From: Marsupella aquatica
Lineage: Eukaryota; Plantae; Marchantiophyta
Direction: 5' to 3'
Length of the DNA: 64,000 bases
Assembly (NCBI GenBank): GCA_973895155.1
Contig: OZ316894.1
Span: 3,930,944-3,994,943, forward strand
Part shown: positions 17,946 to 46,367 of the stretch, piece by piece
Numbering within the stretch: the first letter of the stretch is position 1
How the letters are laid out: the number at the start of each line of letters is the position of its first letter
Program-made: the position numbers and the translations under genes
The notes under the pieces: model-generated
Seen by the model: only the letters and a program-made list of their open reading frames with translations
What the model was told of the DNA's origin: nothing
Databases searched by the model: none

Positions 17946-17959
17946 CACTAGAAGAAAAC

Positions 17960-18335
17960 AGGGCCCTTTATGACCAATCACCCAATGACAGAGATGAATA
18001 AATGACCAAAAGTTTTAATGACACAAAAAGAATGACGGGGGAATGACTGTCCACAATGACCAATAGACTGAAATGACAAAATGTTAATTTTTTCGTCATT
18101 TTGTATAATGTCTATAATGACTGATGCGACCAAAATGACCCAATTTCCCTAAATGGTCAATTTAGACACATGTCTTAAATGACACAATTAATAACAACAA
18201 TGATAAATCAGTGTTTAGCAACATTATAGTCACTCTGGACAATGACTGAAATGACCAAAAATCTATTTGCATCATTTTGGACAACGGTGATAAATGACAA
18301 AAAATGTATTATCGTCATTTTAACCAACGGTGTTA
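17960..18335. repeat. Left subterminal repeats of the outer CACTA (AATGAC/GTCATT in both orientations)
   Basis: Dense aatgac and gtcatt motifs directly inside the TIR, mirrored at 45437-46145. Confidence 0.85.
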
Positions 18336-18850
18336 AATGACAAAATTTAGGGTCAATCTGAAAATGAGAATATATCAGTGTTTACAACAACATATTGTCA
18401 TTATGGACTTCTGCCATAAATGACTAACTCTAGGGTCAATCTTGAAATTAGGACATATTAGTGTTTACAAGAACATACCGTCATTATGGACTTCTCTCAT
18501 AAATGACTAACTCTAGGGTCAATCTTGAAATTAGGACATATCAGTGTTTACAAGAATATACCGTCATTATGGACTTCTCTCATAAATGACTAACTCTAGG
18601 GTCAATCTTGAAATTAGGACATATCAGTGTTTACAAGAATATACCGTCATTATGGACTTCTCTCATAAATGACTAACTCCACAGTCAATCTTGAAATTAG
18701 GATATATCGGTGTTTTCAACAACATACTGTCCTTATGGACTTGTCGCATAAATGACTAAATATAGGGTCAATCTAAAAATCAGGATATATCAATGTTTAC
18801 AATAACATACAGTCATTATGGACTTATTACATAAATGACTACTTATAGAG
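18335..18850. repeat. 83-bp tandem repeat, about 6 copies
   Basis: aaatgac unit starts at 18335, 18418, 18501, 18584, 18667, 18750 and 18833, an exact period of 83. Confidence 0.93.
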
Positions 18851-18929
18851 TCATTAAAGAACCCAAGAGATATGAAGATTAAAATACTCAATAGTCATTC
18901 CAGACACCTATCATAATTGTAGAGTCATA

Positions 18930-21900
18930 CACCTTTGGAGTGATTTTCCAGAAGTGTCATCATATATAGATGCGCGCATACTATCGTATCCATGGGGCAA
19001 ATGAAACCTTTTTGTCTCTCCAAGAAGTAGGGCAATACCAATGGAAGGTTGTCATGCTTTGTTGTAATTGTGTCATGTTTGTGCCGGTGTTTAGACGGGG
19101 AATATTTTAATTTGCAAATAAATGCATGCATACCATCACATCCAAAGGCAAATAAAAGTTGTTTTTTGGTTCTCCAAGAGGTAGTGCTGCCCCAATGGAA
19201 TGGGCAGGGGAGTCATGCTTTTAGGGTATGGTGTGGGTGCAGATTTAGGGAAGAGGAATATTCTAACCTTGCAAGGAATCTAAAGCTGGCTCTCTTTGGA
19301 GGTACTAGGGCCTTTATTGGGTCATATGTGAGCAATGGCCCGTCATAAATGCCAATGACTAAAAGTAGGGTCATTAAAATTGTCATATGGAGAGTCATAT
19401 CAGTCTAATGACTGGATTTGTGGTCATTTGAGGGGTCCCTTATGTAGTCATTAAGGAAAAGCACAAATGACCATTTTGGGGCTAGGGGCTTGAGGTAGGC
19501 CCTAGAGTGCCATGGGCCCCACATAGAGGTGAGAACCCCTCCACTGCGTGCGGGACACTATACTGTCCAACCACTAGTTGCGACATAAACACTTTGGACA
19601 CAAGTTTTTGTGTTTCCTTAAGGCATGATGCACCTTTGGGGAAATCACTCCCAAGTCGTATGACTTTGGAGTGATTTGCCAAAAGTGTTGCCATGCATGC
19701 ACACCATCACATACAAAGGCAAATAAAAGTTGTTTTTGGGTTCTCCAAGAGGTGGTGCTGCACCAATGGAATGGGCAGGGGAGTCATGCTTCTCAGTATG
19801 GTGTGGGTGCGGGTTTAGGGAAGAGGAATATTCCAATCTTGCAAGGAATCTAAAGCTGGCTTTAGTTGGAGGTACTAGGGCCTTTATTGGGTCATATGTG
19901 AGCAATGGCCCGTCATAAATATCAATGACTAAAAGCAGGGTCATTAAAACTGTCATATGGAAAGTCATATCAGTCTAATGACTGGATTTGTGGTCATTTG
20001 AGGGGTCCCTTATGCAGTCATTAAGGAAAAGCACAAATGACCAGTTTGGGGCTAGGGGCTGGAGGTGGGCCCTAGAGTGCCATGTGGCCCCACATAGAGG
20101 TGAGAACCCCTCCACTGCGTGCGGGACACTATACTCATCATTGTCCAACCACTAGTTGCGACATAAACACTTTGGACACATGTTTTTGTGTTTCCTTAAG
20201 GCATGATGCACCTTTGGGGAAATCACTCCCAAGTCGTATGACTTTGGAGTGATTTGCCAAAAGTGTTGCCATGCATGCACACCATCACATCCAAAGGCAA
20301 ATAAAAGTTGTTTTTTGGTTCTCCAAGAGGTGGTGCTGCACCAATGGAATGGGCAGGGGAGTCGTGCTTCCCTGTATGGTGTGGGTGCGGGTTTAGGGAA
20401 GAGGAATATTCCAACCTTGCAAGGAATCTAAAGCGGGCTCTCTTTGGAGGTACCAGGGCCTTTATTGGGTCATATGTGAGCAATGGACCGTCATAAATAT
20501 CAATGACTAAAAGCAGGGTCATTAAAACTGTCATTTGGAGAGTCATATCAGTCTAATGACTGGATTTGTGGTCATTTGAGGGGTCCCTTATGCAGTCATT
20601 AAGGAAAAGCACAAATGACCAGTTTGGGGCTAGGGGCTGGAGGTGGGCCCTAGAGTGCCATGTGACCCCACATAGAGGTGAGAACCCCTCCACTGCGTGC
20701 GGGACACTATACTCATCATTGTCCAACCACTAGTTGCGACATAAACACCTTGGACACATGTTTTTGCGTTTACTTAAGGCATGATGCACCTTTGGGGAAA
20801 TCACTCCCAAGTCGTATGACTTTGGAGTGATTTGCCAAAAGTGTCACCATGGATGCATACCACTGTTCCAAACGCAAATGAAGCCCTTTTTTGTCTCTCC
20901 AAGAGGTAGCGCAACACCAATGGAATGGGTGTGGCAGTGGTGCTTCCCTCTATGATGTGTCTGATGTTTAAAGGTATACGATTATTCCATTTTTGCAAGG
21001 AATGTAGAGCGGGCTCTCTCTGGCGGTGCTAGGACCTTCTTTGGGTCATTTTTTAACAAAGTCATGTCATAAGTGTCAATGACCACAAGTAGGGTCATTG
21101 AATTGGTCATATGGGATGTCATATAATTCAAATGACTGGACTTGTTGTCATTTGAGGGGTCTCTAGTGCAGTCATTGAAGACAAGCATGAATGACCAATT
21201 TGGAGCTAAGGGCTGGAGGTGGGCCCTAGAGTGCCATGTGGCACCACATAGAGCTCGCAACCCCTCCACTAGGTGTCAAATACTATAATTACTATTCTCC
21301 AACCACTAGTTGCACCATTAGCAGTTTGGAGCCATGTTTTTGTGTTTACTTAAGGGATGATATAATCTTGGGGAAATCACTCCCAAGTCGTACGACTTTG
21401 GAGTGATTTGCCAAAAGTGTCACCATTGATGCATACCATCCTATCTAAAGGAAATGAAGCCATTTTTTTTTGTCTCTGCAAGAAGTAGTGCAAGGCTGTT
21501 GTCCTTCCATGTAATTGTGTCATGTTTGTGCCGTTGTTTGGATGGGGAATATTCTATTTTGCAAATGAATAGTCTGTGATGGGGCACTCAAGAAGGTAGT
21601 GTAATCTTCATTGAGTCATTTCTGAAAAAATTGGTGTCATAAATACCAATGACTACAAGTAGGGTTATTAAATCTGTCATATGGGCTGTCACATAAGTCA
21701 AATGACTAGATTTGTGGTCATTTGAGGGGTCCCTTGTGCAATCATTAAGCAGAAGCACAAATGACCAGTTTGGGGCTAGGGGCTGGAGGTGGGCCCTAGA
21801 GTGCCATGGGGCCCCACATAGAGGTGAGAACCCCCTCCACTAGGTGCGGGACACTATACTCATCATCGTCGAACCACTAGTTGTGTCATGAACACTTTGG

Positions 21901-22920
21901 ACACATGTTTTTGCATTTACTTAAGGCATGATGCACCTTGGGGAAATCACTCCCAAGTCATACAACTTTGGAGTGATTTGCCAAAAGTGTCACCATGGAT
22001 GCATACCACCGTATCCAAGCGCAAATGGAGCCATTTTTTGTCTCTCCAAGAAGTAGCGCAACACCAATGGAAGGTTGTCATCTTGTGATGTAATTGTGTC
22101 ATGTTTGTGCCGGTGTTTGGATGGGGAATACTCCATTTTGCATATGAATAGTGTCGGGGCATTGTGAGTAGGTGTTGTAATCTTCATTGGGTCATTTTGG
22201 AGGAATAGTGTGTCATTAATGCCAAAGACTACAGTAAGGGTCATTTTGGCAGTCCTTTTGGAAGTCATTTGTGCCAAATGACTCCATATGGGGTCATTAT
22301 AGAGGTCCCTCATGGTGTCATTACGGACCATCAGAAATGACCCTTTTGGGTCTAGGAGCTTAAGGTGGCCCTAGTGTGCCATGGGGCTCTACATGAAGGT
22401 GGCAACCTCTCCACAAGGTGCGGGGTACTATACCCACCGTACTATTCTCCAACCACTAGTTGCACCATGAGCACTTTGGAGCCATGTTTTTGCAATTACT
22501 TAAGGGATGATGCAACCTTGGGGAAATCACTCCCAAGTCATACAACTTTGGAGTGATTTGCCAAAAGTGTCACCATGCATGCATACCATCCCAAGGCATG
22601 CATACAAAAATTGTTTTTGTCTCTCCAAGAGGTATATAGTGCAATACTAGTGGAAGACTATGTCCTTCTATATAACTATGTCATGTTTGTGCCGATATTT
22701 GGATTTTGGATATATTCTATTAAATTCCAAAGGAATTGTAAAGGGGCACTCCGAGAGGTAGTATACTCTTCATTGGGTCATTTTCACATAATGTGTGTCA
22801 TTAATGTCAATGACTACAATAAGGGTCATTTTGGTAGTCAGTTAGAGGTCATTTGGAGCAATTGACTGCATATGTGGTCATTAGAGAGGTCCCTCATGGT
22901 GTGTCATTAATGGAAACACC
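18930..22920. repeat. About 578-bp tandem repeat, 6-7 copies, each with a conserved hairpin
   Basis: gaaatcactcccaagtc occurs at 19641, 20219, 20797, 21373, 21943 and 22523, giving periods of 578, 578, 576, 570 and 580. Confidence 0.93.
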
Positions 22921-24249
22921 TCAAATTAGGGTAATCTTGGTTGTCATACTAGAGGTCAGAAGTACCAAATGACTGGAAATGTGGTCTTTACAAAGGCTAT
23001 TGGGGGGTTCTCTTTGGAGGTACAAGGGAGTTCATTGGGTCATTTGTGAATTAAATGGTGCTTCAATCTGAGGACTAAACGTGGGGTCACTCACGCTGTC
23101 ATATTCGAAGCCATTAATGTTGGCATATTGGAGGTCATATAGTCATGGGAAGGCTCACTTATTAATGCTTTGGTGTAATGCTCTCAAAAACTCTTAGACA
23201 ACATAGCCTCATATGTAGTGGTCATGTAGCATGTAAGGGACCCTATAATTGTGCTTGAGTCATGAATGAGGGTTTCTCTCAATTGAGTCAGGAGTGGAGA
23301 GCTATTAAATGCTAATATTTGGATGAGTATCACTATCATATGGTGAGACAATAAGGTAGTCCAAAATGGTGTTCATGCATGCGGGTTATGGGTTTATATC
23401 GCGGGCATATATCGGACCTTTTATATCGCTAGCATCATTTTTTATATATAACATTGGTCCTTAACATTCTTGTTGGCACCTACACAAACAGCCATGACCT
23501 TATGGGGGGGGTCGTGACATTATGAGTTATTAACCTTGCCTTCCCTATTTAGGGCCTTATGGGGGCGTCCGGACCTTGTTATTAACCTCTATAGTCGGTA
23601 TTTCCCTAGGGCCTTATGGGGGGGGGGTTTACATTGTTATTAACCTAGTCTCAACTTCCCTAGGGCCTTATGGGGGGTCCAGACATGTGAGAGATATTGT
23701 CAGAATATAACCCTAATTAATGACCCACAATATCCACCATCCCCATCCAACAGAATACCTTACCTTTATGGGGTTTAGGGGTCCAGCATTAGGTTTTTCC
23801 CGCTAAGTGTTCTTGCGTACCAACAGGAGCCCTTTTTCCTGAAAAAACATCGAGAGGGCAACGCTCGATGTGCTCATTTCTTGGCATGCCTTTGTGTGCA
23901 CATTGCAAGGGCTTAGGGTTGCGCAGCGTTGTGCTCCATTCCACCAAGCTTCGACACCCTTCGAAGCGTTGGGCGAGGCATTGTTCGGGCAAGCATTGGG
24001 TGAGGCATTGTTTGAGTGAACCGTTGGACGTGGCATTGTTTTAGTGACCATTTGCAAGGTTTAGAGGAGGAGCTCCGACCCGAAGCCATTCAGGCTACAA
24101 TTGTTTTTGAGCTTGTTGCGCGCGGTCGGTGGAGCACCTCGGTAGGACTTGGGAGCTTCTTTGGAGGACCCTGCGCTTTGGAGGACATTCGGGCTTTGGA
24201 GTGCCCGATTGCAGGGTCAAGGCAATAGCTTCTTTACATTTGTCCTTGT

Positions 24250-24525
24250 TGCGGGTGAGGAGCGGAGGATGAGCTGCAATCGGCGATAAGCTGCGGGTGA
24301 GGAGCGGAGGATGAGCTGCAATCGGCGATAAGCTGCGGGTGAGGAGCGGAGGACGACCTACAATCGGCGATAAGCTGCGGGCGAGGAGCGGAGGACGACC
24401 TACAATCGGCGATAAGCTGCGGGTGAGGAGCGGAGGACGAGCTGCAAATCAGCGACAAGTTGCAATCAGCAGCAAGCTACAATCGGCAAGAAGCTGTGGG
24501 TGAGGAGTTGCAATCGGCGAGAACC
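24250..24525. repeat. 42-bp GC-rich tandem repeat, about 5-6 copies
   Basis: gcgggtgaggagcggaggatgagctgcaatcggcgataagct repeats; the minus-strand ORF shows a 14-aa periodicity. Confidence 0.9.
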
Positions 24526-24852
24526 TACAGGAGGTTCCATCAAGGAGCTGCGAGAACTTATATCTGTGGGAGCGAGTTTGGGCTGAGGTGCGAGAAGGTC
24601 AGTTGTGCAATTTTGCGCTTCTTCCCCTTCTGGCCATTTGTTCATTCTGCATTTTTGCTTTGCTTTTGCCAATGTGCTACCAATGTGCTGTCAGTCCATG
24701 AATCCAATGTTGCCTTCTTGTTCTGTTGCTTAGTGTCTGCTAGTATGCTTATGGCAATGACAGAGAAGCTCCGATTGCTAAGAGACTATTTGCTCTCTCT
24801 TTCTCGCTCTCTCTCTGTCCCTCTCTCTCTAAGTGCCTGAGTTTTGCACCAG

Positions 24853-24986
24853 TTTTTGAATGTCTACAATGTTGAGTTCCCTTTGCAGAGAAATGTGAAT
24901 GCAGTTTTCGAATGTCTACAATGTTGAGTTCCCTTTGCAGAGAAATGTGAATGCAGTTTTCGAATGTCTAGAATGTTGAGTTCCCT
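24853..24986. repeat. 52-bp tandem repeat, about 2.5 copies, following a CT-rich tract
   Basis: tttt(c/t)gaatgtctacaatgttgagttccctttgcagagaaatgtgaatgcag starts at 24853, 24905 and (partial) 24957. Confidence 0.85.
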
Positions 24987-26860
24987 GACGTGATGCGATG
25001 GAGCATCCTGGACGCGCACTGATTGAAGCAGTTGTGCGTGTCGTCAGCATTGTCATGGATTGGAGAAGGAAATCCCATAGAACTAGCCATTGCACTTTCT
25101 TGCACAATGCCTGCATTTCCTTCCCTGTACCATGCTAGCTCCACTGCGACCTTCCACTGCTATCTATGTTGATTCCTTCCACTGCTACAAAATTCTGCTT
25201 TGCAATGGCATCCCAATGCTCATATGTCCCAGTAAAATTCGGGTAGACATAAGTATTAGGCGCGGACTCTTCTCTCTCTGCCTGCCCAAGATCAGGGTTT
25301 ACTGGTTCTAATTGCTAATTCAGTCCCCATTTAGAAAGACCTAAGAAATTTAACTATCTTTGAGCTTTATTGTTTGTTTTGGCAAAATCTTCCCTTGCGG
25401 CCAGCAGCTGAGGCCCAGCGTCCACAATGTCCGATACATTTTTCAAGACATAAGTAAGCTGGCTGGGAAATGCCTTTCTCCTCAATCTCAAGAGATGATT
25501 TTTCTGGAGTCTGCTCACGTATTGCTCTTGCTTGTCCAGAACCTGAACGGCTATTTACCACAACTGAATCAAGTGCCCGAGTTCTGACCAAGTTGTCCTT
25601 TGTCTGTCTGCTGTTGATTTCTGATTGCTACTTGTTGGATTTGTCTGCTATGTTCAGTTCAGTTTGTTGTCTTGTTGTCGTCTGACAATCTTTGTGGTGC
25701 AAGGTGAGCTTGATCTCTTATTATTACAATGTAGTCCTTAGTTTTCCATTGTATGATGTTTTCCTTAGTCTGTCTATGTTCCTCAATGAATTGGTTTCCT
25801 TACTCTTCTTTTGACATCCCTCTGTATCATAGCCCTTTTCTTTTCTCTTTTTTTTACTGAAGAGAAGTGCAGGCATGTATGGTGAATCCTCACTTGATTC
25901 CAGCAGCGACTCTATAGAATTTTGTCGCCAAAAAGTTTCAGAGTTTCGTGTGTGGTTTGCCAACTGCTGTGCCACCTCAGAGAATTCCTTAGTGGCTTTT
26001 GTACAAGCCTTGCTCTTCAACTATGGTAATTTACAGCTAACTGTCTGATGTTCACACAACATCCATACACAACAATGAATACAACTCCATGAATACAGCC
26101 ACATGATTTCCTTTGGTCTGCAAACTGGACGAAACTAAACTAAAATCAGCTTGGTCAATTTTAAATTCTTCGTAAGGGTCTCTGACAGCAGCCCGGTATA
26201 GTCATTTGTGCACGAAGATAGAGTACGGTGCAGCTTTTGAAAAAGTGGGTGGACCAGCAGCTTGTTGAGAGTAAAGCAACTTATGGTTCTGTAACAGATG
26301 TGTGCAGCAGCTTAAGATGTAGAAGGCACACAATAAAACTTGATTTTTACAGATTTAAAAAAGGGCAGGGTGAGTGAGCACTGCATGTTGAACTCACAGG
26401 TCCGAATCTTGATTTGATTTCGCTGCTAAAATTCGTATCTCTTGCCTGAGTCCCAGTTTGCTGGAGTTTTGTTGCTCTCTGTGCTTTGTTGTGCACATTG
26501 TTGTGTTTGCTCTGTCCATTTTAAAACTTGAGAGCCAAATGAATGCTTTGCTGAAACTCAATTGCTATTTGTTCTGTGTTGCCCTTACAGATTTTAAAAA
26601 GGCAAGGTGAGTGAGCACTGCTGTACAGCAAGCAAAGGCATACAGGTTGCAATATTTGTGATTGCTTCCAATCATCTAGGCCAAGGTTATTTGCGCTGCT
26701 CAGTCCTAAATGCTTTGCCATCTATAAAGCATTGGTTTATGCTGCACCCTTGTGGTTACATGTCATATTTTATGCTGCACCCTCATTCTTTTGTGTCATA
26801 CTGCACCCTGTTATTCCTTCTTGTTTCACAATCTGATGTAGGGTCTGAGTGTGCAGGACC

Positions 26861-27520
26861 ATGGCTCGCAATAAGCAGAAGGCCATGAATCGTTGCAGAG
26901 GTGAATCCTCTCAAGCACCTCAATTGTCCTTATATTCAGACATTGAGATTAACCAGAATAGTCCACATGTATGTGCAATTTGTGATGAGGGAGGGGATCT
27001 CATTGTTTGTGATGGGCCTTGCCACCGACATTTCCATAAGAATGTTTCCTGTCCTTTGGGTCAGCAATGGCTATGCCCAACTATATCCCTCGCTGATGGC
27101 CATGTTGGAGAATGGCTTTGTGTTGATTGCAAGAATGAGGAACATTCTTGCTTTAAGTGCCATGTGTCTGGAAAAATTGGTGAAGAGGTAAGAAAATGTC
27201 CAGACTCTCTCTGTGCCCGGTTTTACTGTCGGCAGTGTTTGGTTCCTGGCACAGCATCATGTGGACTCCATATTTGTCTTACTTGTGGACAGGGGCCCAA
27301 TGATGGGGCTAATGGCTTTTTGGTTCAGTGCATGAGGTGTCCTAAGGCATGGCACAAAGACTGCCTGCTGTTTATCCAGCAGAGGGGATTTGCCCATGAT
27401 CGAACAATTTGGGATCACTCAGCGCATGGGCAGCCCAAGAAGGGGATGTTTTACTGTCCTGACCATGACATTGACCCTACACTAGGCACTCCTGCTAGGA
27501 GCCACATATCTTGGATTTGA
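26861..27520 (+). CDS. Stand-alone EDM2/NSD-type composite PHD-finger protein (219 aa) carried by the outer CACTA
   Basis: Uninterrupted ORF; the ATG is in an accATGG context just after a tgcag acceptor. CAICDEGGDLIVCDGPCHRHFH...CVDC.EEHSCFKC...CGLHICLTC...CMRCPKAWHKDCL...YCPDHDIDPTLGTPARSHI matches the EDM2 PHD module as I recall it, including the YCxxHxIDxxLxTPxRxH tail. Confidence 0.88.
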   Translation: MARNKQKAMNRCRGESSQAPQLSLYSDIEINQNSPHVCAICDEGGDLIVCDGPCHRHFHKNVSCPLGQQWLCPTISLADGHVGEWLCVDCKNEEHSCFKCHVSGKIGEEVRKCPDSLCARFYCRQCLVPGTASCGLHICLTCGQGPNDGANGFLVQCMRCPKAWHKDCLLFIQQRGFAHDRTIWDHSAHGQPKKGMFYCPDHDIDPTLGTPARSHISWI

Positions 27521-28117
27521 TTGAGGCTGGATGGAACACAAACTTGAAATAGAGCTTTTTGATGGTTTCACGTGGACTTAAACAATTTTCAGAGTGCTAA
27601 AACATGTGGACTATTTATATGCAGTTTGATGAACTCCTCATGTATACACACTCTACGACAGTGCATTGCGGATTGAGGCAATTAATTTTGAGAAATCAAC
27701 TTTATTATCTTTTCCAGGGTAGGATTCCGATTTTCAAGCATGTACTTTGAGTGTGACTTTCCTCCATATTGATGTCTAAACTTCACTTGTAAATTTGTCA
27801 CTGGTGTCACAAACGTTACTTATTCTAGACCTGTCTGCTCACATTCCTAATAGGCAAACAAATACTGGAAATGATGAAGCCACAGAGATTTACGTTCATA
27901 GTATCATTCTGATGACACTGTATGTGATGCTCTATTTGTATGCAAGGAGAAGGTGCCCTACTACAGTGGATTTGAGAAACTGGGCTCTGTGGGTTTGAGC
28001 AATTGGACTGTGGTTGGCATCGGTTGTACAACTGTGACGGTAGGCCCAATTTTGTATGCATGTCACTCTGATTAAGTTTGAAAATCATAGTTTGAATACA
28101 ATTTCAATCAAGCTAGC

Positions 28118-30911
28118 ATGGCACAATTGCCACAGAATACGTTAGGTGTGGGTAGAACTCCAAAGTTGCCGCTCTTCCATCCAGCTAGAGTACAACATCG
28201 TGATGATGCTTTGTGGGTTCGAGAACAGAAGGCCTGCCACAAGAGTGGGGACCATAAGATGTACTGCCCTTGTGTGAACTGCAAAGGGAATTATAGGACT
28301 AATCGGAATACTGCTAGACTGCACCTTATTAAACATGGTCGGTACCCTGCATGTCAAGTGTGGGTGGGAGAGGGACAGGACTCTTCTGATGAAGAGTGGG
28401 GTGCTGACTACATGCCACAACATGGCCCTGAGGCATTGAGGGTAGCAAACCTTCAGCAGGCAACCTGTGCACAACAGCCAATTGTAGATGTTGAAGAACA
28501 TTTATTTGTAGATGTTCCAGAGTATCCAACTGTGGATGTTCAAGAACATCCAACTATAGATGTCGAAGAACATATCAGGGCTCTACTGGAAGAAACGTTG
28601 CTGAGAACCAGTGAAGAATCCCCTGAGCATGAGCTAGATGATCAGGACCGTTTTGACTTGGATTTTGTACTTGGGGATGATGAGAGTGAAGGAGGTGCCC
28701 ATCCTGTAAACCCCCTTGAAACCTCCAAAACTCCTGTGGAGACTGATCCTGCACAGTTATCTTTAGATGCAGCAATGCAACCTTTGTTCCCAGGCAGCAA
28801 AATAGATGTTGTGTCATTCATGTTGCTTCTGCTGAACATCTGTCATGGCCATGGATTCTCAAACAAAGGAGTGAATGCATTGTTGTCTTTGATGGGGGAG
28901 CATGGTATGCCTACAGAGCATAATCTGCCCAAGAACTTATATGCTGCAAAGCAGCTATTGAGAAAGCTTGGCTTGGATTATGAGAGAATCCCTGTCTGTG
29001 AGAAAGGTTGTATGCTCTTTAGGGGTGAGAATGCCAAGTTAGAAAACTGTTTAGTGTGTCAGCAGCCCAAGATGAAGAGAGTGGGGAATTCATTACAGGC
29101 AAGGAAGGTAGTGCGGTATTTCCCTATAATTCCCAGGTTGAAGAGATTGTATGCCACTGCTGGTACATCTAAACTCATGACTTGGCATCATGAGAATAGA
29201 AGCACAGACAACATGGTTCGGCACGCAGCAGATTCAAAGGCTTGGAAGCATGTGGATACAAATATTGATCGGGAATTTGCAGCTGAACCAAGGAATGTGC
29301 GATTTGGGTTGGCACTTGATGGGGTGAATCCCTTTGGGAATAATTCCACAGCTTGGTCTACCTGGCCAATACTGTTGTTGAATTACAATTTACCTCCTTG
29401 GCTTACCACCAAGAAGTTCTTTGTCATGCTAGCTATGCTGATTCCAGGACCTGATTCAGTAACAGAGGAACAGCTAGACATAATATTGGGCCCATTCTAT
29501 GAGGAGTTGGAGCTGTTGTGGAAGAAAGGAGTGCCCTGCTTTGACAAATTGCCATGCCCAGGATTGTCTCAACACTTCAACCTTAGGGCTGTGCTATTGT
29601 GGACAATCAATGATTACCCTGCATATGGTTTAATATCTGGACAACAACACTCTGGATACAAAGGATGTGTCATCTGTGGACCAGAATGTGTGGCACGTGG
29701 TTCTAAGCACTTGCAGAAATTAGAGTACAGTGGCCACCGTCGATGGTTAGCAGCAAGGCATCTTTTTCGTAGACCAGATAGTGCACAATACTTTGATGGT
29801 GCAATTGAGAGTCGACCTGCACCGTGTAGAATGACAAGCTCTGATAGAAAGAAGTGGTCTGAAATGATGGCCATGCATCATTATATATTAGAGAATGAAG
29901 AGACAGTGGCTCCATGGTACAGGTACATAAACCCTAGAAACTCTCCTATCCTTAGGCATATGGATCATAATTATGTTGCCCCATTGTGTTTGTATATTCA
30001 TGGTGGATCGTGCACTAATGTCTTCAGTGTTGTTGTTGCCATGCAGGATATATGATGCTACCAATGAGACTGTTACCAAACAAAGAGTGGATTTCCGGAA
30101 GGAGTGGATGAGGAAGCCTGCCAATCGAAGAAAACCAGTGGAATTTCCCGTAGACTGCCAAGAATTGCCACCTTTCAGGGAATGGTTTCAAACATTAGTC
30201 AATACCCATAATTTTGAGAAAGAGTCTGAGCGGTCATTACTATCTGCATACTCCACACCACCTAGTTTGAAGGCACGACTGTATAGGGCATGTAGAGCCT
30301 ATGGGCACCATTGGAGGACTATTCCATCCTTGGGGTGTTTGAGTGATTGTGATTCTGGTGCTTTCAGCACTTTTGATTCTGGGATGGCTTCTACATTCAC
30401 TGAGAAGCGAGTGGACAGGTCTGGTGCAACCATAGAAGAATCTGTACAGTATGTAGGGGCCTTGACAGATATCTTGGTACTGAATTATGGCAGCTTGAGG
30501 AAAGAGGTGATTCTTTTCAAAGGGAAATGGGCAGATCCATCATGGACTCCTAAATCCTCTGCCAGTATGAGGTATACCAAGTCTGGTCTTTGGCAGGTGA
30601 ATTTCCATAGAGAACTGGGTGTGTCCAAGAAAATGGATTACGTTTTCCCAAAGCAAGTGGAGCAGGTTTTCTTCCACCCCAATGAGAAGGGGATAGCATG
30701 GAGAACAATCCTCCACAAAGAATCCAGGTCCACAAGGGTGTTAGGTGATTACACAGACATTGATTTCCATGCTACAATGGAAAACAATGCCAAATTACAC
30801 ATCGAATTGGCTAAGGCCTGTAGGTCCAGAGAAAATCCAGGACCAAGTACTGGTCCCAAACGAGGCAGAGATGCAGAGGGATCTGCAAGAAAGGGCAGGC
30901 CTAATCAGTGA
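28118..30911 (+). pseudogene. CACTA TnpD/Tnp2-type transposase of the outer element, internally deleted; exons 28118-29922 and 30047-30911
   Basis: N-terminal CPCVNC...HLIKHG, then VRYFPIIPRLK, VRFGLALDGVNPF and WTINDYPAYG. C-terminal LFKGKW...YVFPKQVEQVFF (DUF4216-like). A GT-AG intron at 29923-30046 joins the frames. The MHIE/KxHD/WMYxxER block is absent. Confidence 0.9.
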
Positions 30912-31002
30912 ATAGGTTTTAGCTAGGTGTGTGAAGTCCATAGATGGACTACATGTATGGACTATTTATGAAATCAGACTAATGGTTTACCCATTTGTGC
31001 AG

Positions 31003-34000
31003 TTGGTGAATGCAGCCTGTGAAAGGAAGATTGCAAGGGTTGTCACATTCTGTGAATCCTTATGAGGAGGCCCGAAATCGGAACATAGAGCATAATGTCA
31101 GAATTATGCGTGATCTAGGACTGGGGCCAGACTGCAAGCTGATGTGTGTGTTGATATGTCTATTGCAAATTTGATTTAGTAGATGGAGTTGTCAGGTTCA
31201 TGTTCTGTTTTCATATTCCAGATTGGTCTCATACTAGTATGGATCCTGTACATAAGTACTAGTGTTACGGTGTTGTAGATTCATTTTGCATGTATCTTTG
31301 ATCTGCATTGGTGTATGTTGATGATTGCTTTGTTCCTTAGAGGCCCAACCACACATGTACAACGAGAGAGAGGAAAGCCTGCTTTGGTGAAAGGTACTTC
31401 AACTGAAACATTGCCAAACAGGAGGAGCTCTAGACTATCAGAAGTTACCAAGGTGAACATGGCAGAGTTTGGTGATGATGGCTATGGTTCTCCTTCTGAG
31501 TATGACACTGAGGATTCTGACATTGGAGGATCAGAACCAGAGAGTGCACAACAGGTAATGCTTGAACTTCATCATCCTAATAGGAAGGGATCCTTGTCCC
31601 TTTTTCAAATTATATGTTGATATGCTTACGTTGTCCATGATGTAGGTACAGAAACAAAATCGTGGTCCTAAGAAGACTGGGCCTGGTGGAGGTGGGCTAG
31701 TGAGATGTTGGAAAGACCCAGACACTGGACTCTTATATGAAAGTGAGTGGATTGTACTGTTCTACTTTTCAGGTGTGTTTGGAAGTTGATATTCTACTTG
31801 GAAATGAAATTAATTGAAGTGCTTTGGTGTTGTGTGTTTGTTTAGTGGTTCCATCAGCATCTCAAGGCAGATCAGGTCAATCTGATGTACTACATTCCAG
31901 AGGATCTTCAGGTAATACACAATCTGCTCGTCATGCATATGCAAGTACATTTGCTCAACTTTTCAATCATGTACATATTTTTTGATTGAATGCATGTGTG
32001 TGCATTGCAGGAGGGGCCTCTGAGATGCGCAGGGAACGAAGGCATGCTAAGAAGCAGTTTGATAATGCTGCCAAACAACGAAGGGATTGCGGAGAGGTGC
32101 CCAAACACATTAAAGTGAGTATTGTACTTGTTTTGAATGTAGATTTAGACAAATCTGATCCTCTCTGTTGTTGTGTGTATAAAACCTGGACTCTGCATAA
32201 ATTCCAGAGTTATGATCTGACATTTTCTGTGAAATGCAGATTTATGACAATGATATTGATGATTCTGATGGCAACAAACAATACTGGCTGGAGGAACTTC
32301 GTGGCAACGTACTCAGAGTCTTTGATGTATCAAAGCCAAAATGGACTGATCATCCACAAGTTCATACAACCACTATGTGGAATAACATGGCAGCTGAGTG
32401 GGAGTATGTGGGTGGGGAATTTATTAACACCAAATTCCAGAGTCATTGTCGTGGCATATTGAAGAGAGAGCGCCATAAAATGCATGTTTATTGGAAGAAA
32501 GTTTGCAATGAGGATCCAACCAAACCTGGGCCATCTGGTGTTGATCCAAAGAAATGGGCAGCTTTGGTATCTCATTTTACCAGTCCAGCATTGATATCTT
32601 TGAGTAAACAGATGACTGATAAAAGAGCACGAGTGCAAGATACCTCTCACTTTGGAAAGGGAGGGCATGCTGCAGAAGCAAAGAGAATGGTAAATTGTCT
32701 ATCATTTTCACTATCAATTCTGTCTTGTTTGTGAATCTTGATGAAAACAAACTCTGTGATTTCTCATTCATTGTGTGTTTGAACAGAAGCAGAAGAGAGG
32801 ATCAAGCCCAGGTATATCTGACCTGAAAGAAAACCATGGTAGTCAGGGTTCATTGCCAAAGGTGACAATGAGCCCATCATTGGCAAGTGCAGAAGGTCAG
32901 ACTGGTAGTTTTGTGGGAGCAAAGGTGAGCCCATCATTGGCAAGTGGGGAGGGTAAAAGTGCTAGCTTACTGGGGCAAGGAAACAGACATGGATCAGCTG
33001 TGAGTATTGTCATACCAATTTGATTTGTACATCATTCTCCATTTGACAGAGCTAGTGTTGTGTCATTTGTAAGTTTGACAGTGAGACTGTTGTGTTGGTT
33101 TGTGGTTCATTTACAGACCCCACATTCAAAAGAAGAGATCACTGCCATTGGGGCTGTGAAATTGGATGTCGCTGAGTTGAAAGGCACTGTGAGGGAGTTG
33201 ACAAACATGATGACTACGTGGATGGCACATCACCCCAGTAATGCACAAGTTCCAACAGTTGTGCCTAGTCACAGTAAGTTGACTACAACTACCAAACAAG
33301 GTAGTAGAAAGCGATCTCTTACTTTTTCAGGCGATAATGAAGGTAAAATTCTCTATCATGTATACACTGTCCATTCAATGTAATTATTGTGATGTGTATA
33401 TGTCATTGCATGTTTATAATGTTCTTGCATGTTTTTAGTGTGATTATATGTTGCTGGTGTATACATGTTTGTTTATGCATTTCTTTTGTGTGTGTTTTAT
33501 GACAGCATCTTTAGGGGAGCCTCCTGTGTCGCAGGGAAGACCAACTGACACAGCTAACAGTACTCTAAAGCAAACTGAATTGGAAGTGAACCTTTTGCCA
33601 TCTAAATTGCCCAAAGAAGCCATTTCAGATGCCTTTCAGTTGCCAGAGGATAAGTCGACTCAGTTGACACCAGATGTAACCCCAGAATCATCTGAGTTGC
33701 CAAAAGAAACTCCCATTCCAAGTGAACAAGATGACACTCCATCAACTAGAAAGGGAAAGAAGAAAAGGAAGAAAGGATCCTCAGCAAATGCATCACCTGC
33801 ACAGAAGAAACCAATGCAGTCTTCTAAACCCGTTGCAAAGGTAAATGTGTGTTTGATTTGAGTGTTCTTCTATCTTTCAATTTCTGTTTATTGCATTTTT
33901 AACAAAATGTGTTGTTCACAGTTTGCAAGAGGAGATTTGGTGAAGATGAAGAGCGTTGTGGACAATTCCATGATAGTGGTAGAAGGTGAGGTGACAGGGC

Positions 34001-34182
34001 TGCCAGGAGAAGATAAGTTTCATTGTGCAGATTTTGAAAGCCCTTTCTTGTGAGTGCGTGTGATTGAAGTGTTTGTAGATGTGGCATTGCCATTTGCCAA
34101 TTCAGGGGAGAACCAGTCTAAATTATCTGATGTGAAAGGGATGAATGCCCTATGGAACTCTAGATTGCTTAAGAAGCAATAG
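31003..34182 (+). pseudogene. Multi-exon CACTA TnpA/ORF2-like accessory gene of the outer element; exon boundaries approximate
   Basis: NPYEEARNRNIEHNVRIMRDLGL near 31053. KPGPSGVDPKKWAALVSHFTS...TSHFGKGG resembles Ptta/En/Spm transposase_24. Coiled-coil and basic NLS-like segments follow. The C-terminal VVEGEV...VRVIEVFVDVALP...ALW domain has an in-frame TGA at 34051. Confidence 0.72.
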
Positions 34183-34399
34183 AAATAGCACTCTATCAAG
34201 AAACAATAGACATGATAGAATGACAACTCTGTTTTTCTATAAACATGCAGAGTGATTGGTATGTCAGGTTGTAACAATTGACAATCTAATATTATTGATG
34301 TCAATGTAATTTTGTTTCATAAATTTGCATTGAGTTCAATATTTACCGTGAGACTTATGAAGGTATCTTGTATGAATATCACACTACTACATATTTGCC

Positions 34400-34940
34400 A
34401 ATTTTGCGAAGGCGTTTTACAAGAGGAAGAAAGCTTTGCAAGATTAATCTCATCGCTAAACTTGCGATACGATATGCATTGCACTTAGCGAATCTACACA
34501 CATCGCAACACATAATTGCGAAACTTAGACCATCGCAACATTTTACCACACTTTAGGTATCGCAAAACATTTCCGAAGCAATTACCATTGAACAAGTTAG
34601 CGATCTTTACCGCTTCGCAAATTCATTGAGATGCGCCGGAAAACTAAATGGTTGCGAATATTTAAGCATCTCAAAATATTTTGCGAGTCTTATTGTCTCG
34701 CAAATGAGCGATGTTTGTGGAATATATGGCTAACTTGCGATAGTAATAGGCTCGCAAATCCTGTGCCTATCTAGGGTCTCATTTTGTGAATGTTTTGGTT
34801 TCGCAACTTTGAGATGGTGGTATCTTCGGAAGTTTGCGATGAGGGGATGATGGCAATTAGGGAGCAGTTAAGTATCGCAAATGTAGCGATGAGTTTGCGG
34901 GTGTAGGGGTTTCGCAAGATGTTTCGCAAAATATTATGAG
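34400..34940. repeat. Left subterminal TCGCA/TGCGA array of the inner CACTA
   Basis: Many tcgca, ttgcga and agcga motifs in both orientations, mirrored at 44790-45260. Confidence 0.85.
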
Positions 34941-35735
34941 CGCTTCAAAGAGGTGGAAAAGGAATGGGATTGGGGAGGGAGGGTAAAGGAGGGTGGATAC
35001 ATGTAATTTTTAGGGAGGGACAATGAAAAGGAGGAGGAAGGGAATGGGGCTAGGAGGGACAAGGAACGGAGGGATCCAAGAGGGAGGATACAGGTTTAGG
35101 GGGCACAAGGAAATGAGGGAGGAGGAAGGGTATGTGGATATAGTTTTAGGGAGGGTTTGGATTTAGGGAGTGAAAATAAAAGGAGGGAGTTTAGGGTTTA
35201 GAGAGGGACAAGGAAAGGAGGGAGGGTATTGGTTTAGAGAGGGACAAGGAAATGAGGGAGGTTTAAGGGTATAGGTTTAGGAGGGAGGAGAGAAGCTAGG
35301 TTGTATAGGTAAGAGTGGGGGACAGGGGTGGAAAGTAAGGAAAGTATAGGGTTGAAATAGAAAGCCAGGGGTTGGGACAAGGAGAGGAAGGAGGAAGGAG
35401 GGTTTAATAAGAGGGACAGACAATGAAAGAAAGGAGGAGGGAGGTGGGTACAAGTAATAAGGAGAATAGCTAGGGGGGGATTAGGAAAGCATGGAGGATA
35501 GAGGACTACAAGCAACATGAGTTTTCTTTGCATAAAGTCTACCAAAAGGTGTGGTGAGTGTGGGGTAGGGATGGGAGATATAGAAAACAACATTTGAAAA
35601 TGATATACTTACAAAACATAAGTTTATTGATAATTGAGAAGCACATATTTCTCCATTCTACCGAGAAGAGAAATCTTCATATCATCAAATCGAACTATAT
35701 ATCCGTGTAGCTATATATCCACAAACACAGACCCC

Positions 35736-38700
35736 TCAAACTTGGTCCTCATCATCTTCAGGTTGGGACACAACCAGAATATCAGGCTTTTCCCCAACGA
35801 TTGAACGAGACCGTGGCACATATGTGATGACAAGTGACCATTCCTCTGGGTTTGGGGGGTATGGAATATAGAAACATTGTTCCACATGACTTGGAAAAGT
35901 GAACGGCTCTGATGTTTGCCAATGAGATGGCTGGAAACTAGTGGCAGACGTCTTCAGTCGTGTAAATCCACACTCATCTTGAACCACAGTAGGATTGTTA
36001 CCTGCAAGGTTCACTTTGAACCACTTGCACTTGAAGACATACTCTTCAAACTTTGATTGTGCATCATAAGATATCACTAGAATCTCTTCTACCTTTCCAT
36101 AATGTGGCACAACATCTCGAATTATATTTGTGTCATGGCGACTGCTGCGGGAATCTTGAGAGAATTGTCCTTGAACTCCACAATCAAAGGTACGACCCCT
36201 CTTCTCATCAAGGGAAGAAATCCTAAAATCCATCAAACTATAAGGATATGTTACACAAAAATAGACACAAACATATTCCAATTAATTGAACACACCAAGA
36301 ATCTGCCTCTTCAATATACGTGCTTGTATTACAAATGAATTAAATTAAACCAAGTGATTCAAATCAAAGGTTACTAAGGTAGATGGAGATCACCTGAAAT
36401 GTCTTCCTTGTGTCCACATTGCTGTCCTTGTTGTAACCACTCTCAAGGGACCATGAACAATGGTACGAACATCATCTGTGATAGCCGGAAAATGTAATAC
36501 ACTCTCTCCCCTGACCACCATGTCATCCACCTCAACTAACTTCTCCTTCATATAGTCAAGGTACTTTGGAAAAATCCTTGGTCTTGTGCTGTTACTTTTG
36601 GCATCCTCATAGAAATCCCTCCATTCTTCCATGATAGTGTTGTTACTCAACATGAATGTGGTCAGTTGTTTCACCTCCACTGGTGTCAACATGCGAGTTT
36701 TCCTAGCACTTGTTAAACGATCCTCTTCATCTTCCCTCTCCTCTACCCAAGTACGGGGAGAGGTACAATCAATTGTGGCCAATATGTTACTACAATAGAA
36801 CATACTCTCAGCTGCTAAGTATCCTGTAGCCATGCTTCCCTCAACCCGTGCACGGTTACGTACATAACCTTTTAACACTGCCATGTATCGTTCTAGCCAA
36901 TACATCCACCGACAATGCACAGGACCTGCAATGGCCACCTCATGAACAAGATGAACAAGTAAATGCACTTGACAGTCAAAAAAGGAAGCAGGAAGGGCCT
37001 TCTCCAACTTGCATACCACCTCTGCTGCCAAAACCTCCATCCCAGGGATCTCATCAGTATATATCTCCTTAGAGCATACCCATCTCAATAGTTTTCCCAA
37101 TGACCAAAGGGCATCTTGCACTTCTTCACTTGCCAAACCTATTATGGCCACAGGCAATATGTGCTGCAATAACCTATGGTAGTCATGTGTCTTGAGATAC
37201 CTTGGCCACTTATGATTGTCCTCCATCCCAAAGGCCTTTCGGAGATTGGCACCATAACCAGTAGGAAACCGCATGTCTCCTATGCGATTCTGAAACTCCC
37301 TTCTCTGGCCAATAGGAAGCACCCATGGAGCTGAAGGTCGATGCTCGATCCCTGTGATAGGATCACTTATGACCCACATGTCTGGATGCATCTCAAGATC
37401 CTCACAAGCCTCCCTGAAGTTAGTGTCTTTCTCTCCATAGAAAGCCTTTATCAAAGCCTTTCCCATATTTCCCTCAATGTGCATGGGGTCTAATAGATGG
37501 CGGATCTTCAACTCACCCCAATAGGGCAAAGTGGTTAATATACTCCACCTTGTCAAGCCACTACTGTCAAATTGCATGGGATCCTCTGGGTCTACCACTC
37601 TTGCAGCCATGTCTTTCCAGTGTGTAAAAGTTGTTGGCTCAGGTACATCATGCTCGTCACCAAAGGGCATATCAATAGAGGAAAATAGTAGTGGGTCACG
37701 CCTCATCTGATGTCCCATTGGAAGAAACTTTGTATGCCCAAGATAAACAATCTTGCGAAGATGTGATGAATACTTGGCTACATCACCAAGGCTTGGGCCA
37801 CAAGTGGAGCAAGCCTTGTAGCCTTGGGTTTGCAACCCACTCACAAAGCCAAATCCTGGTCATATAAACACACATTATGTTAGGATTAGCACATGGAAAT
37901 GAGGGGATACCATGCATTAGAATATGATGCATTTAAACAACAAAGTTCTTACCTGGGTAGTCATGCATGGTCCACATACAAACCCCTTTGAGTTTGAAAA
38001 CCCGTGGGGTACCCCCTGTAGTCTTTCGACCATCATATGCCCATACTCCTTCCCATAATTTCTGGAGTTCCTGAACCAGTAATGTCAAATAGGTGTCCAT
38101 GTTCTTCACCTTCTTTGGCCCTGGGATAATCAAAGATAGCAACAAAAAACCCTTTTTCATGGACAACCATGGTGGAAGGTTGTAATTCATGAGAACCACA
38201 GGCCAGACCGATGTAGGTCTCCCCTTCCCTCCAAGTGAATGAGGGCTAACTCCATCTGATGCCAACCCCAGTCGCACATGCCGAGGGTCACGCTCAAAAT
38301 CTGGCCATGTTGATTCCACATGTTTATGAGCAGGAGAGTCAACTGGTAATCGCATGACACCAGGCTCCGAACGATGTTTCTTGTGCCATACCATCAACTC
38401 GGCCAAGTCAGAACATCTATACATGTGCAACAAGCGAGGAATTATGGGGAACCAACGACTGCTTTCCTTGGTACCTTCTGGGTTAGCATGTTTGGCTCAT
38501 ACCGTGGCTCATGACACACTGTGCATTCTGTGATATGGGCTGTATCCCCATGAAATAACATGCAATCATTCACACAGGCATGAATAATATGGTAATCCAT
38601 ACCAATGGATGAGAGAACCTTCTTTGCATCCTTCCAGGTCCCTGGCAACACATTCTCCGAGGGTAACATCAAGTCATGACAATATTCAAATATGTCTGAT

Positions 38701-40506
38701 AACATAGAATTGCTTATCTTGTGTTTGGCTTGAATGTTCAAGAGCCCCAATATGGCAGAAAGACGGCTCAACCGAGCACCCTCAAAAATAGGTGTTCGAG
38801 CATGTTCCTCTGCCTCTTTCCATTGTTGTTGTCCCTCTGGAGTATGTTGTGGCCGTGGGTCATTTGAAGGGCCAACCTCATGACCAATGTGAGGCACATC
38901 ATCCTCAACATCGGCACCAAACCAATCAACCATGAAGTCATCCATGGCTCTATCTTGATCATGCATGACCTGGTCATCAGTCCGAGGTGCGGCTTCCTCA
39001 TCAGCACCACCTACATCATTACTTGATGAGGAATCACCCTCTGATGGTTCTCCCTCTTCTGGCATACCCATCTCCCGATATGTTGCTCTCAACCTTCGTG
39101 GTAACATTTGTTGAGATGGTTGCGCATTCTATGCACATTACAACCAAAAAACCTCCTCATGTATATTTGACCAAGTACAACAAATTAAAATAGACTTAAC
39201 ACCATTCATTCAAGACATTAAGAATTAAAGTAAATGCATGGGCTAAAACCTTATTACTCCAAAATGAGCCCAAAGGCCATATATATAATAGTAAATGGGA
39301 AGTCCAAAATAGGTGCAAGAGGATAAAGGACATGATTTCCTAATCCCACTCATAGTGTGTGAATAACTCATCTCCTGCTCTAATGGTCCTAGTAGCAAGA
39401 ACTAAGCAATGGTCCTTATGATATGTCGTGCCATATGGTGCCGGCATTGGACCATCAGTAAAAACCCACTCACAATTGGCCCTACGCTTGGGCCGAGTCC
39501 CCACAGTACTATTTATGAAACCAGCAATATTCCCATTACGTATGGGATCACCATCTATCACCCGCTGCTCACTATACCTTCTAGTGCTACCATCAAAAGT
39601 ATCCATCTCTAGAGCATATGTTTTCCACTCAGGATGTTGTGCAAGGATCATGTTCCAATGTCTTCTCTTGTAGATGGGTCCACCGTATGGGAACAAAGTA
39701 GGACCCTCTCTACCACGAACACTTGACCCACCCTCCTCATCCATGATGATATCCTCACAAGCAAATACTCCATATCCATGTCTCTCTCCAAGTGTGGAAG
39801 TTTTCACAATCCAACGTCTACCCCAAACCACAATCTCCTCATCAAAATCTGTAAAATAAGGCAAGCCAAGAGTGATAGGTTCCCAATCCTTGATGATAGA
39901 GGCACACTTGCTAGTGAATGAACAAACACCCCACCTACCCTGAACTAGTGTTCTGGATGGGTCATTGGGTGCTCGTGGCCTCCTGTTGGATTGGGGCCTA
40001 GACCGGGGTCTTCGTGTCTCAGTGGGCACATGAGGGTGTTCCCCTTCTGTCCCATGACTGGTACTAATTCCCAAACCCAAGGCTTGTGAAAGTGCATTGC
40101 CTATAGCATCTAAAACTCCTTGTGATGGGACATAGGGTGGTGGTGTCACCAATCTACGCATACTGGATCCCTATTCCATGCAAACACCCACAAACAACCA
40201 AATGTGTAAACCATATGTGTAAACATTGATTCACCTCTAAAAATAACAGTAAAGAACGGCAATCAATTGAAACAAACTTACCATATGGGATGAAGAAGCC
40301 CCGGGAGTAAGACCTCTATGACGTCCATATCTCTCAATATGTTGAGCACACACATAAGATTTTTGAGAAATTTGGCCCACACATCTGGTGCAGTCATAAA
40401 GTCTTCGGGGTGGACCACGAGGACCAGTAATCTCGGGCTGAGGAGGAGGGGGTATATCATCATCGGAGGAGTACTCACTACTGGATAGTTCAGAGGACGA
40501 GGACAT
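35736..40506 (-). pseudogene. TnpD/Tnp2-type transposase of the inner CACTA; predicted exons 40506-40282, 39128-37953, 37855-36394 and 36222-35736; one frameshift near 38457
   Basis: Motifs VRLGLASDGVSP, WTMHDYPG, LDPMHIEGN, LKTHDYH, HLLVHLVHEV, WMYWLERYM, FKCKWF and EPFTFPSHVEQCFY. All three predicted introns are GT-AG and preserve frame. Restoring 1 nt gives VRWFPIIPRL. Confidence 0.9.
39340..40506 (-). CDS. SET-domain protein (putative lysine methyltransferase) of the inner CACTA; exons 40506-40282 and 40170-39340
   Basis: STLGERHGYGVFA (motif I), PYGG, IDG...GNIAGFINS...ANC (NHS-like) and LATRTIRAGDELFTHY (ELxxDY-like). No post-SET cysteines. The SET exon is uninterrupted, and a phase-0 GT-AG intron at 40281-40171 links it to the upstream exon. 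Confidence 0.85.
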
Positions 40507-40639
40507 ATCCACTGCCACATTACATTGCATGTAGGGCATGATTAGGAAAAATTAGGCCATATATAAAGCGATTTAAAAAAAAATGAACTCAAAAAACAAT
40601 TAGGTTGGTTTATACATGGGGTTTTATTACCCTTTTATA

Positions 40640-41680
40640 TTTGTTAGCATGAAACCCAAATTAAGGTGAGTGTCATGCAAGAAGAAACCACATTATAACC
40701 TTTGGGAAAATTGTAATACCCTATGTCCTAAGTGAGGTTAGATTATTACCTGAATGAGACCCGGGCTCAACAGTGCCTATAGGTCACGTGGCTTTTGGAA
40801 CATTTGCCAAATCTAGAAGTAGGAGGAAAATACTGGAAACAAAATATAAGTTTGGATGGTAATTAGCAGCCGTCAAGTTGTGGAATCTTAGACATTTACC
40901 CACATATATCATGGCACAACAAAGAAGGGCAAGCATAAAAATCTGTACTAACAACATTGACTGTATACATGATGTTATACCTTTTAGATGCCCGGGTTCC
41001 CACAATGCATATGCATTAGACAAAAGTTGAGGTAGTAGTGTTGGCCCTGCGTTGTATCATGATTACATGGGTTTTCCCCTCAATTGTTAGCATAAAACCC
41101 TAAACCCTAAACCCTTATCCCCCCTCGAGTGAAAGGTGAGTGTCATGCAATAAAAACCCACCCTAGACCCCTGGGAAAACTCTAAAGGCCTAAGCCCAGA
41201 ATGAAGTTGGACAATAATTACCTGAATGAGATCCGGACTCAATAGTGCCTGTAGGTCGTGTGGCTCATTGAACATGAGCTGAATCTAGAAGCACGAGGGA
41301 AAATACTGGAAACAAAAAAGTAAGTTTGGATAGCCATTAGCTTCTCTCAAGTTGTAGACCCCCAAACATGTGCATATAGATATTCTTGCACAACAAAGAA
41401 GGGCAAGGTTTATGAACAATCTCTTTATCAAACCCTGCTAACATACATGTTTAAATATACCTTTTAGATGTCCGGGTTCCCACAATGCATATGCATTAGA
41501 CAAAAGTTGAGGAAGCAGTGATGGTCCTGCACTGGATCATGATTACATGGGATTTCCCTCAATTGTTAGCATAAAAACCAAAACCTCATCCCGCTTCAAG
41601 TGAAAGGTGAGTGTCATGCAATAAAAACCCACCATAGACCCTTGGGAACTCTAAAAGCGTAAGCCAATGAAGTTAGCAAA
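40640..41680. repeat. About 450-480 bp tandem duplication, about 2.3 copies, in the divergent-promoter region of the inner CACTA
   Basis: ttgttagcat...aaggtgagtgtcatgcaa occurs near 40641, 41084 and 41563. cccacaatgcatatgcattagacaaaagttgagg occurs twice. Confidence 0.85.
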
Positions 41681-46145: not shown

Positions 46146-46367
46146 AATATTTGTTTTCTACTAGTGCAAGTAGAGTAACTTAACAATATGTAATTTCTGT
46201 ATATGGGTTACTCAATCCTGTTATGGTTACGGCTTAATTCTAGTTAACCCTTAGTTAACCTTAAATGGTTTTTAGGGGGACACCTATGGTTTTAGGTGAT
46301 TGTCTAGAATTTCCCGCTGAGTATCTCATATGGATAGCAGAAATTGTAGTCCCCAAGACTAGAGTCA

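Follow-up and report, generated by a model that had tools for sequence, protein, structure and literature searches.

A conserved H3-like N-terminal tail on a PHD-cassette protein encoded by a CACTA transposon of Marsupella aquatica

Viruses and host proteins are both known to mimic histones; the nearest published systems are cited here and below, and the literature searched also included a review on mimicry in genetic conflict (PMC13165374). [quoted passage not shown] Arabidopsis EDM2 is pulled down by H3K9-methylated peptides (PMC6208443), binds transposon chromatin and promotes full-length transcripts (PMC7529245), and in bryophytes Polycomb repressive complex 2 marks transposons (PMC11982613). 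The gene described here lies in a 64,000-nucleotide stretch of Marsupella aquatica DNA (contig OZ316894.1, positions 3,930,944 to 3,994,943 of the forward strand), which is called the window and in which positions are counted from the first letter. It belongs to a CACTA/En-Spm DNA transposon and encodes a PHD cassette preceded by a tail resembling residues 1-9 of histone H3. As judged by sequence comparison the tail is real, conserved and unusual, and from this we infer its function: the reading we favor, with a probability of roughly one half (0.5), is that of a transposon accessory gene in which a PHD cassette carries a conserved tail that would act as an H3(1-9) mimic for host chromatin proteins.

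26861..27520, plus strand: single open reading frame (ORF) gene of 219 residues, made up of the tail, a variable linker and a stand-alone EDM2/NSD-type PHD cassette
26861..26890, plus strand: start Met plus H3(1-9)-like tail, from the sequence and the homologue tally; disordered in both AlphaFold2 models

The ORF runs from the ATG at 26861 to the stop codon at 27518-27520 and its product begins MARNKQKAMN. When aligned with the H3 peptide printed in PMC8166343, which served as the reference, six of the first eight residues are identical and in register (Met, A1, R2, K4, Q5 and A7), and reading of the ORF thus bears out what the original prediction had claimed for MARNKQKA. Positions 3 and 9 are both Asn and a second Met is encoded at 26885; on this alignment T3 and K9 have drifted in the window copy. 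Of the features by which H3TMs are defined, the N-terminus has Arg2 together with Lys4 and, by AlphaFold2 prediction, disorder, and an initiator Met followed by a small residue would be present as Met-Ala if translation starts where predicted (for the disorder, predicted local distance difference test values below 50 for residues 1-23 of the window protein and residues 1-28 of its homologue P0002, from 15 and 32 sequences). A G9a-type A-R-K-[S/T] motif around a K9-like lysine is absent: the window protein has A-M-N-R and, among 28 rows, ARKT is present only in P0033. The chance of at least five identities in the seven positions after Met was about 3e-5 (single sequence, Ala at 0.3, background of long relatives), and when the first 22 residues of the protein, themselves basic, were shuffled, the window tail gave p=0.016. 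Both estimates ignore relatedness and were superseded by the column permutation given below, and the H3 likeness of this single copy, taken alone, is suggestive only.

Homologues came from word-based searches, three in number, and from a profile search run exhaustively; together these yielded 36 distinct family rows, 32 of them with the tail. The 32-row tally leaves out P0003, P0004, P0027 and P0037, in which the database call begins inside or after the motif, together with the cluster duplicates P0017-P0019, the outlier P0016 and the C-terminal fragments P0059 and P0074. Motif positions were taken from the alignment, some being set by hand. The closest homologue, P0002 (83% identical), starts MARTKQKAYK and shares seven of nine residues with H3 1-9. 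Among the 32 rows R2 is present in 31 (K in one), K4 in 29 with no R, and A7 in 22, whereas position 1 is A in 18 and S in 10 (A/S in 28/32). The absence of K9 noted in the original prediction holds for the window copy and not for the family, in which K9 is found in 15/32 rows and Arg9 in another 9/32 (K/R in 24/32). Apart from the one K at position 2, Arg and Lys are not exchanged at positions 2 and 4 and are exchanged at 8 and 9. Of the six columns with the highest conservation, all but position 6 carry the in-register H3 residue, and the motif conserved across clades is [A/S]-R-x-K-x-K-A-[K/R]-[K/R], which matches H3 at positions 1, 2, 4, 7 and 9. R-T-K is seen again in a distant clade (P0029 and P0117). 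Minor sibling copies in public contigs of four runs show Asn3 to Thr, Gln5 to His and Met9 to Ile, and no R2 or K4 change is listed among these copies, the numbers being small. The H3TM definition, Met-small-R-x-K, fits 13 of the 32 family rows as against 48 of 20,996 human proteins. In a tree of 28 rows built from the cassette only, the root of which is unsure, Met-adjacent A-R-x-K occurs in several separate branches, and because of this spread over a tail-free tree the Met-adjacent form is suggested to be the older state. Failure of homologues to conserve the motif, which the original prediction named as grounds for abandoning it, was not what we found.

To assess the H3 register we used a column permutation, which treats the family as one observation. 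For the 32 rows this gave p=0.0002, or 0.001 with column 1 held fixed and 0.014 when only positions past the A-R-x-K core were scored. The corresponding values were 0.0004, 0.002 and 0.028 for those 18 rows that came to light once the motif had been defined. Identities outside R2 and K4 (28 rows) were 2.25 for H3 versus 0.36-1.43 for eight other R-x-K N-termini taken from PMC8166343. By these measures the H3 likeness of the tail across the family exceeds chance, and the original caveat that the match could be accidental is not upheld at the family level.

Several observations weigh against the H3-mimic reading. The profile with which the later homologues were found included the tail, in ten rows (four of them Met-adjacent) the start was set at a Met inside a longer database call, and the permutation p values are uncorrected for other histone tails with which the family might have been compared. 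T3 is found in only 3/32 rows (the commonest residue there is Pro, 14/32), Q5 in 5/32, T6 in 0/32 (Lys is commonest, 17/32), R8 in 7/32 (Lys8 in 11/32) and S10 in 1/32, and the close H3 likeness of the window copy and P0002 is, on this tally, the upper tail of the family. K4 is absent in three rows, the Met-adjacent P0021, P0025 and P0026. Met stands directly before the motif in only 16/32 rows; an extension of two residues precedes it in six rows and one of six or seven residues in ten rows, mostly of one clade. A free N-terminal Ala is thus unneeded family-wide, which weakens a reading by canonical PHD pockets. The expectation that homologues keep ARxKQxA at the exact N-terminus was accordingly borne out for R2, K4 and A7 and not for Q5 or for the Met-adjacent placement. 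One upstream exon chain and the loss of an Asp residue, both treated below, are also on this side of the balance, as is the basic character of the tail, which could make it double as a localization signal.

That basic character is also the starting point for another explanation, in which the tail is a conserved nuclear-localization or DNA-binding segment and its H3 likeness is incidental. The tail is K/R-rich, with the predominance of Lys at position 6 and the interchange of K and R at 8 and 9 given above, the position of the motif relative to Met varies, MADS-box MEF2 proteins likewise start small-R-x-K, and a nuclear protein of 219 residues would need an import signal. However, Arg and Lys are not swapped at positions 2 (31 R, 1 K) and 4 (29 K, 0 R), the conserved small residue 1 and Ala7 would be needless in a charge-based signal, and the register is that of H3, whereas the MEF2C N-terminus fits the family far worse than H3 does. 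We consider this explanation unlikely, although a serious contender.

26800..26856, plus strand: likely 3' end of an intron, a pyrimidine tract followed by a CAG acceptor that ends 4 nt ahead of the ATG, predicted from sequence
26353..26369, plus strand: candidate 17-nt micro-exon of the 5' leader, without ATG, from splice signals only
26591..26606, plus strand: candidate 16-nt micro-exon of the 5' leader, without ATG, from splice signals only

Translation probably starts at 26861, where the ATG is flanked by A at -3 and G at +4 and, in the genomic frame, is preceded by an in-frame stop four codons upstream. Sibling copies diverge upstream of about 26822-26844. The sequencing runs compared lack GT-AG joints and resemble DNA, and so bear on neither splicing nor expression. 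An alternative is that the motif lies elsewhere than at the true N-terminus, through a coding exon further upstream or translation from the second Met, or that it is an unselected relic. The splice acceptor 4 nt upstream of the ATG and the leader frame, open in several exon chains, speak for such a possibility, as does one of the eleven candidate upstream chains, that with the long exon 26457-26606, which contains an in-frame Met. The other ten chains lack one, homologues and one minor sibling copy have another residue in place of the second Met (Met9), and a Met lies 0, 2 or 6-7 residues ahead of the motif in 32/32 rows. Of the two other outcomes that the original prediction regarded as fatal, a start at the second Met is made less likely by its lack of conservation and a coding upstream exon finds an opening in a single chain. 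We judge a misplaced start or a relic very improbable.

26972..27517, plus strand: PHD cassette (PHD-1st_NSD, PHD_NSD and PHDvar_NSD), by Pfam
26933..26968, plus strand: family-specific conserved segment before PHD1, in place of the host acidic stretch and Asp at -3

The fusion to a PHD histone reader claimed in the original prediction is upheld as regards the cassette, with chromatin reading as a prediction. PHD_NSD and PHDvar_NSD were above the Pfam cut-off and PHD-1st_NSD and PHD below it, and NSD2/NSD3 were the best Protein Data Bank (PDB) matches both by profile and by fold, the fold matches being modest (the best, with the NSD2 PHD-C5HCH, had VIA Z 6.6 and an rmsd of 3.0 over 85 residues). 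The protein has the array of atypical NSD-type PHD fingers that marks EDM2, with full-cassette matches to long plant-type proteins, and the EDM2 acidic regions and the PGR and methyltransferase-like (ELP) domains are absent from the ORF, which ends at 219 residues; full-length family members have about 210-245 residues from the likely Met. In a FastTree tree of 155 rows the family members group as a single clade (support 98), which a long branch sets off from the remaining matches. Its nearest non-family matches are mostly long proteins, and in 6 of 13 scanned a DNMT1-RFD match precedes the cassette, which we take to be the EDM2 architecture. In the 40 residues before PHD1 long host relatives (n=56) have a net charge of -2 to -24, with Asp at -3 in 45 of them. 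The transposon family has instead the basic tail and its own conserved segment, with an aromatic residue at -13 in 35/35 rows, Glu at -9 in 30/35, Gln at -6 in 33/35 and His at -2 in 33/35. The cassette was likely captured from an EDM2-like host gene, as far as these comparisons reach.

Ten long relatives start M-A-R without K4 (P0039, P0040, P0042, P0045, P0046, P0050, P0087, P0096, P0115 and P0133), most of them lying near the base of the host tree, and 14 of 140 new matches start MAR; the Met-Ala-Arg start could have been inherited from a host gene. Upstream of PHD1, A/S-R-x-K was found in 3 of 94 non-family rows, all short stand-alone proteins of a separate clade. This short EDM2-type PHD clade (P0065, P0069 and P0073) is nested among long host proteins, and 3/6 of its rows start M-A-R-x-K. 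Convergence on the same design of tail plus cassette is possible there, and because of these starts the design may have arisen more than once.

By sequence PHD1 best matches, among PDB entries, the fingers of AIRE, CHD4, ATRX, PHF21A and TRIM24, which are readers of unmethylated H3K4. In such readers an acidic residue just before the first Cys and an Asp after the third Cys serve reading. The family PHD1 keeps the Asp after Cys3 (34/35) and has lost the host Asp at -3, having Pro/Ala there and His at -2; chromatin reading by the cassette is not assured. The tail may be considered as an auto-inhibitory pseudo-ligand that would fold onto its own cassette and be released or locked by modification of K4 or K9. 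The PHD1 matches and the retained Asp agree with this, as does the flexible spacer of 30-45 residues, variable in length and sequence, by which tail and cassette are always joined, and BAZ2B provides a precedent for intramolecular mimicry (PMC5663869). Against it are the lost acidic residue before PHD1 and the preference of canonical PHD pockets for a free N-terminal amine (PMC8166343), absent in half of the 32 rows, and we regard auto-inhibition as decidedly unlikely. A complex prediction for the P0002 tail (residues 2-31) and cassette (residues 26-225), run without an alignment, scored 0.02 and was not used as evidence, and the AlphaFold2 models, with their 15 and 32 sequences, are no test of tail docking.

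If the tail is an H3 mimic, the cassette would dock on element chromatin, in the manner of EDM2 on transposons marked by H3K9me2, and at the docked site a surrogate H3 tail would be offered by the disordered tail, to be engaged by host proteins that read R2 and K4. Because R2 and K4 are strict and a free N-terminal Ala is dispensable in half of the family, the partner would be expected to read the R2 and K4 side chains and to tolerate a short extension. Such tolerance argues for WD40 binders or methyltransferases rather than canonical PHD pockets; the partner would most likely be a WD40 protein that binds histone tails, of RBBP4/MSI1 or WDR5 type, or else an H3K4/K9 methyltransferase followed by a methyl reader. 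The likely purpose would be that the element can still be transcribed within silenced chromatin, with repressive complexes drawn away or activating ones brought in. A more far-reaching version, which we hold tentatively and rate somewhat short of an even chance, is that plant DNA transposons encode a genuine decoy of the H3 tail, coupled to a heterochromatin reader that was captured: the cassette would find silenced element copies, and there the imitation tail, with K4 and K9 open to modification, would hijack host H3-tail writers and binders, in a design that perhaps arose more than once. Should the tail work in the manner proposed, it would represent a new anti-silencing strategy distinct from DNA-motif binding of the VANC type. 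The proposal is cheap to test with a nine-residue peptide, and the family supplies natural variants that are exactly N-terminal, extended or K4-less. The window protein would in addition serve as a model, small and soluble, for PHD cassettes of the EDM2 type.

17946..46166, plus strand: outer CACTA/En-Spm element carrying the PHD gene, with terminal inverted repeats at 17946-17960 and 46152-46166
28091..30911, plus strand: TnpD-like transposase of the outer element (Transpos_assoc, Transposase_21 and DUF4216), by Pfam
34382..45279, minus strand: nested second CACTA element with target duplication TCA and its own transposase at 35736-39128
39340..40170, minus strand: SET-domain ORF of the nested element

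The PHD gene lies within a complete CACTA element, just upstream of the TnpD-like transposase, and is thus transposon-encoded, as the original prediction held. The outer element has CACTA termini, 15-nt terminal inverted repeats matching at 14/15 positions, a 3-bp target duplication (CAA), subterminal repeats and the TnpD transposase, all features of CACTA/En-Spm. A Pfam scan of the outer transposase gave no DUF4218 match, and other copies hold extra sequence near 29856, with loose ends at 29847-29860 in runs X1, X3 and X5; for these two reasons the window copy of the transposase is likely internally deleted near 29856. The second element is nested in the 3' part of the outer one, and public contigs continue past 34381 with sequence like that after 45279. 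The neighboring SET protein was named in the original prediction among enzymes that might methylate the tail, but its ORF sits in the nested element, and a joint system of the PHD and SET ORFs was rejected on that ground. Directly upstream of the nested transposase, the SET ORF makes this a site at which two CACTA families with chromatin genes meet. In run X2 (organism B) the summed contig depth is about twenty-fold higher from 26436, the PHD gene through the transposase, than over the leader region; in that organism many copies of the element appear to carry the PHD gene along, the leaders differing.

Other parts of the window include, in the outer element, long subterminal repeat arrays (18400-22950; units of about 580 nt with an internal palindrome) and, downstream of its transposase, a multi-exon ORF at 31336-34183, probably TnpA-like, three pieces of which gave no Pfam match. 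The nested element has an ORF at 42125-43513 (plus strand), divergent from its transposase and without a Pfam match. A broken Copia retrotransposon occupies 13792-17884, the outer CACTA element starting right after the Copia coding region, and host-like gene pieces are present at 1675-2439 (RING-variant, minus strand), 52764-53813 (C3HC4 RING, plus strand) and 55925-56431 (ParA/NUBPL-type NTPase, minus strand). The relatives of its genes and the presence of TTTAGGG repeats mark the host as a land plant.

Taken singly, histone mimics, H3TMs and accessory chromatin genes of transposons are known, whereas their combination was not found in the literature searched; no transposon-encoded H3 mimic appeared in the titles, abstracts and passages covered, subscription journals lying outside that coverage. 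The text of a gene-capture review (PMC13317346) contains no mention of PHD, EDM2 or histone, and the main text of an Arabidopsis atlas of transposable-element products (PMC13547354) none of PHD or EDM2. Passages of that review and of bioRxiv 10.1101/2025.02.11.637652 likewise name no histone mimic or EDM2-type reader. They describe VANC of VANDAL and the SET-carrying Plavaka, Helitron and HarbingerS elements, which resemble the present element in having an extra DNA-transposon gene thought to counter or reshape silencing. They differ from it in their products, VANC being a binder of DNA motifs and PAG2 an enzyme. Arabidopsis EDM2 (PMC7529245, PMC3632883 and PMC6208443) shares the array of atypical NSD-type PHD fingers, whereas the window protein has only 219 residues and lacks the RFD as well as the acidic stretch and methyltransferase-like domain, the latter two being listed in PMC7529245. 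The window family is moreover a separate long-branch clade with a new basic H3-like tail and without the Asp before PHD1. BAZ2B (PMC5663869) likewise has an H3-like basic segment beside a PHD finger in one chain, but there the likeness is electrostatic and the segment an internal linker of a host protein rather than a position-specific N-terminal motif. The H3TMs (PMC8166343) share with the window protein and 13/32 rows the predicted Met-small-R-x-K N-terminus and, for the window protein, the disordered tail. They are human host proteins, whereas here a transposon is the carrier, the match reaches A7 and K9, a PHD cassette is joined to the tail and, in half of the family, a short extension precedes the motif. 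Influenza NS1 (ARSK) and G9a/GLP (ARKT) likewise use a short H3-like linear motif, and in NS1 the H3K4-like motif of a parasite works without a free N-terminus (PMC6028506). The NS1 motif is viral and C-terminal and that of G9a mimics K9 only, whereas the family motif covers the positions of both K4 and K9 and belongs to a protein of a DNA transposon.
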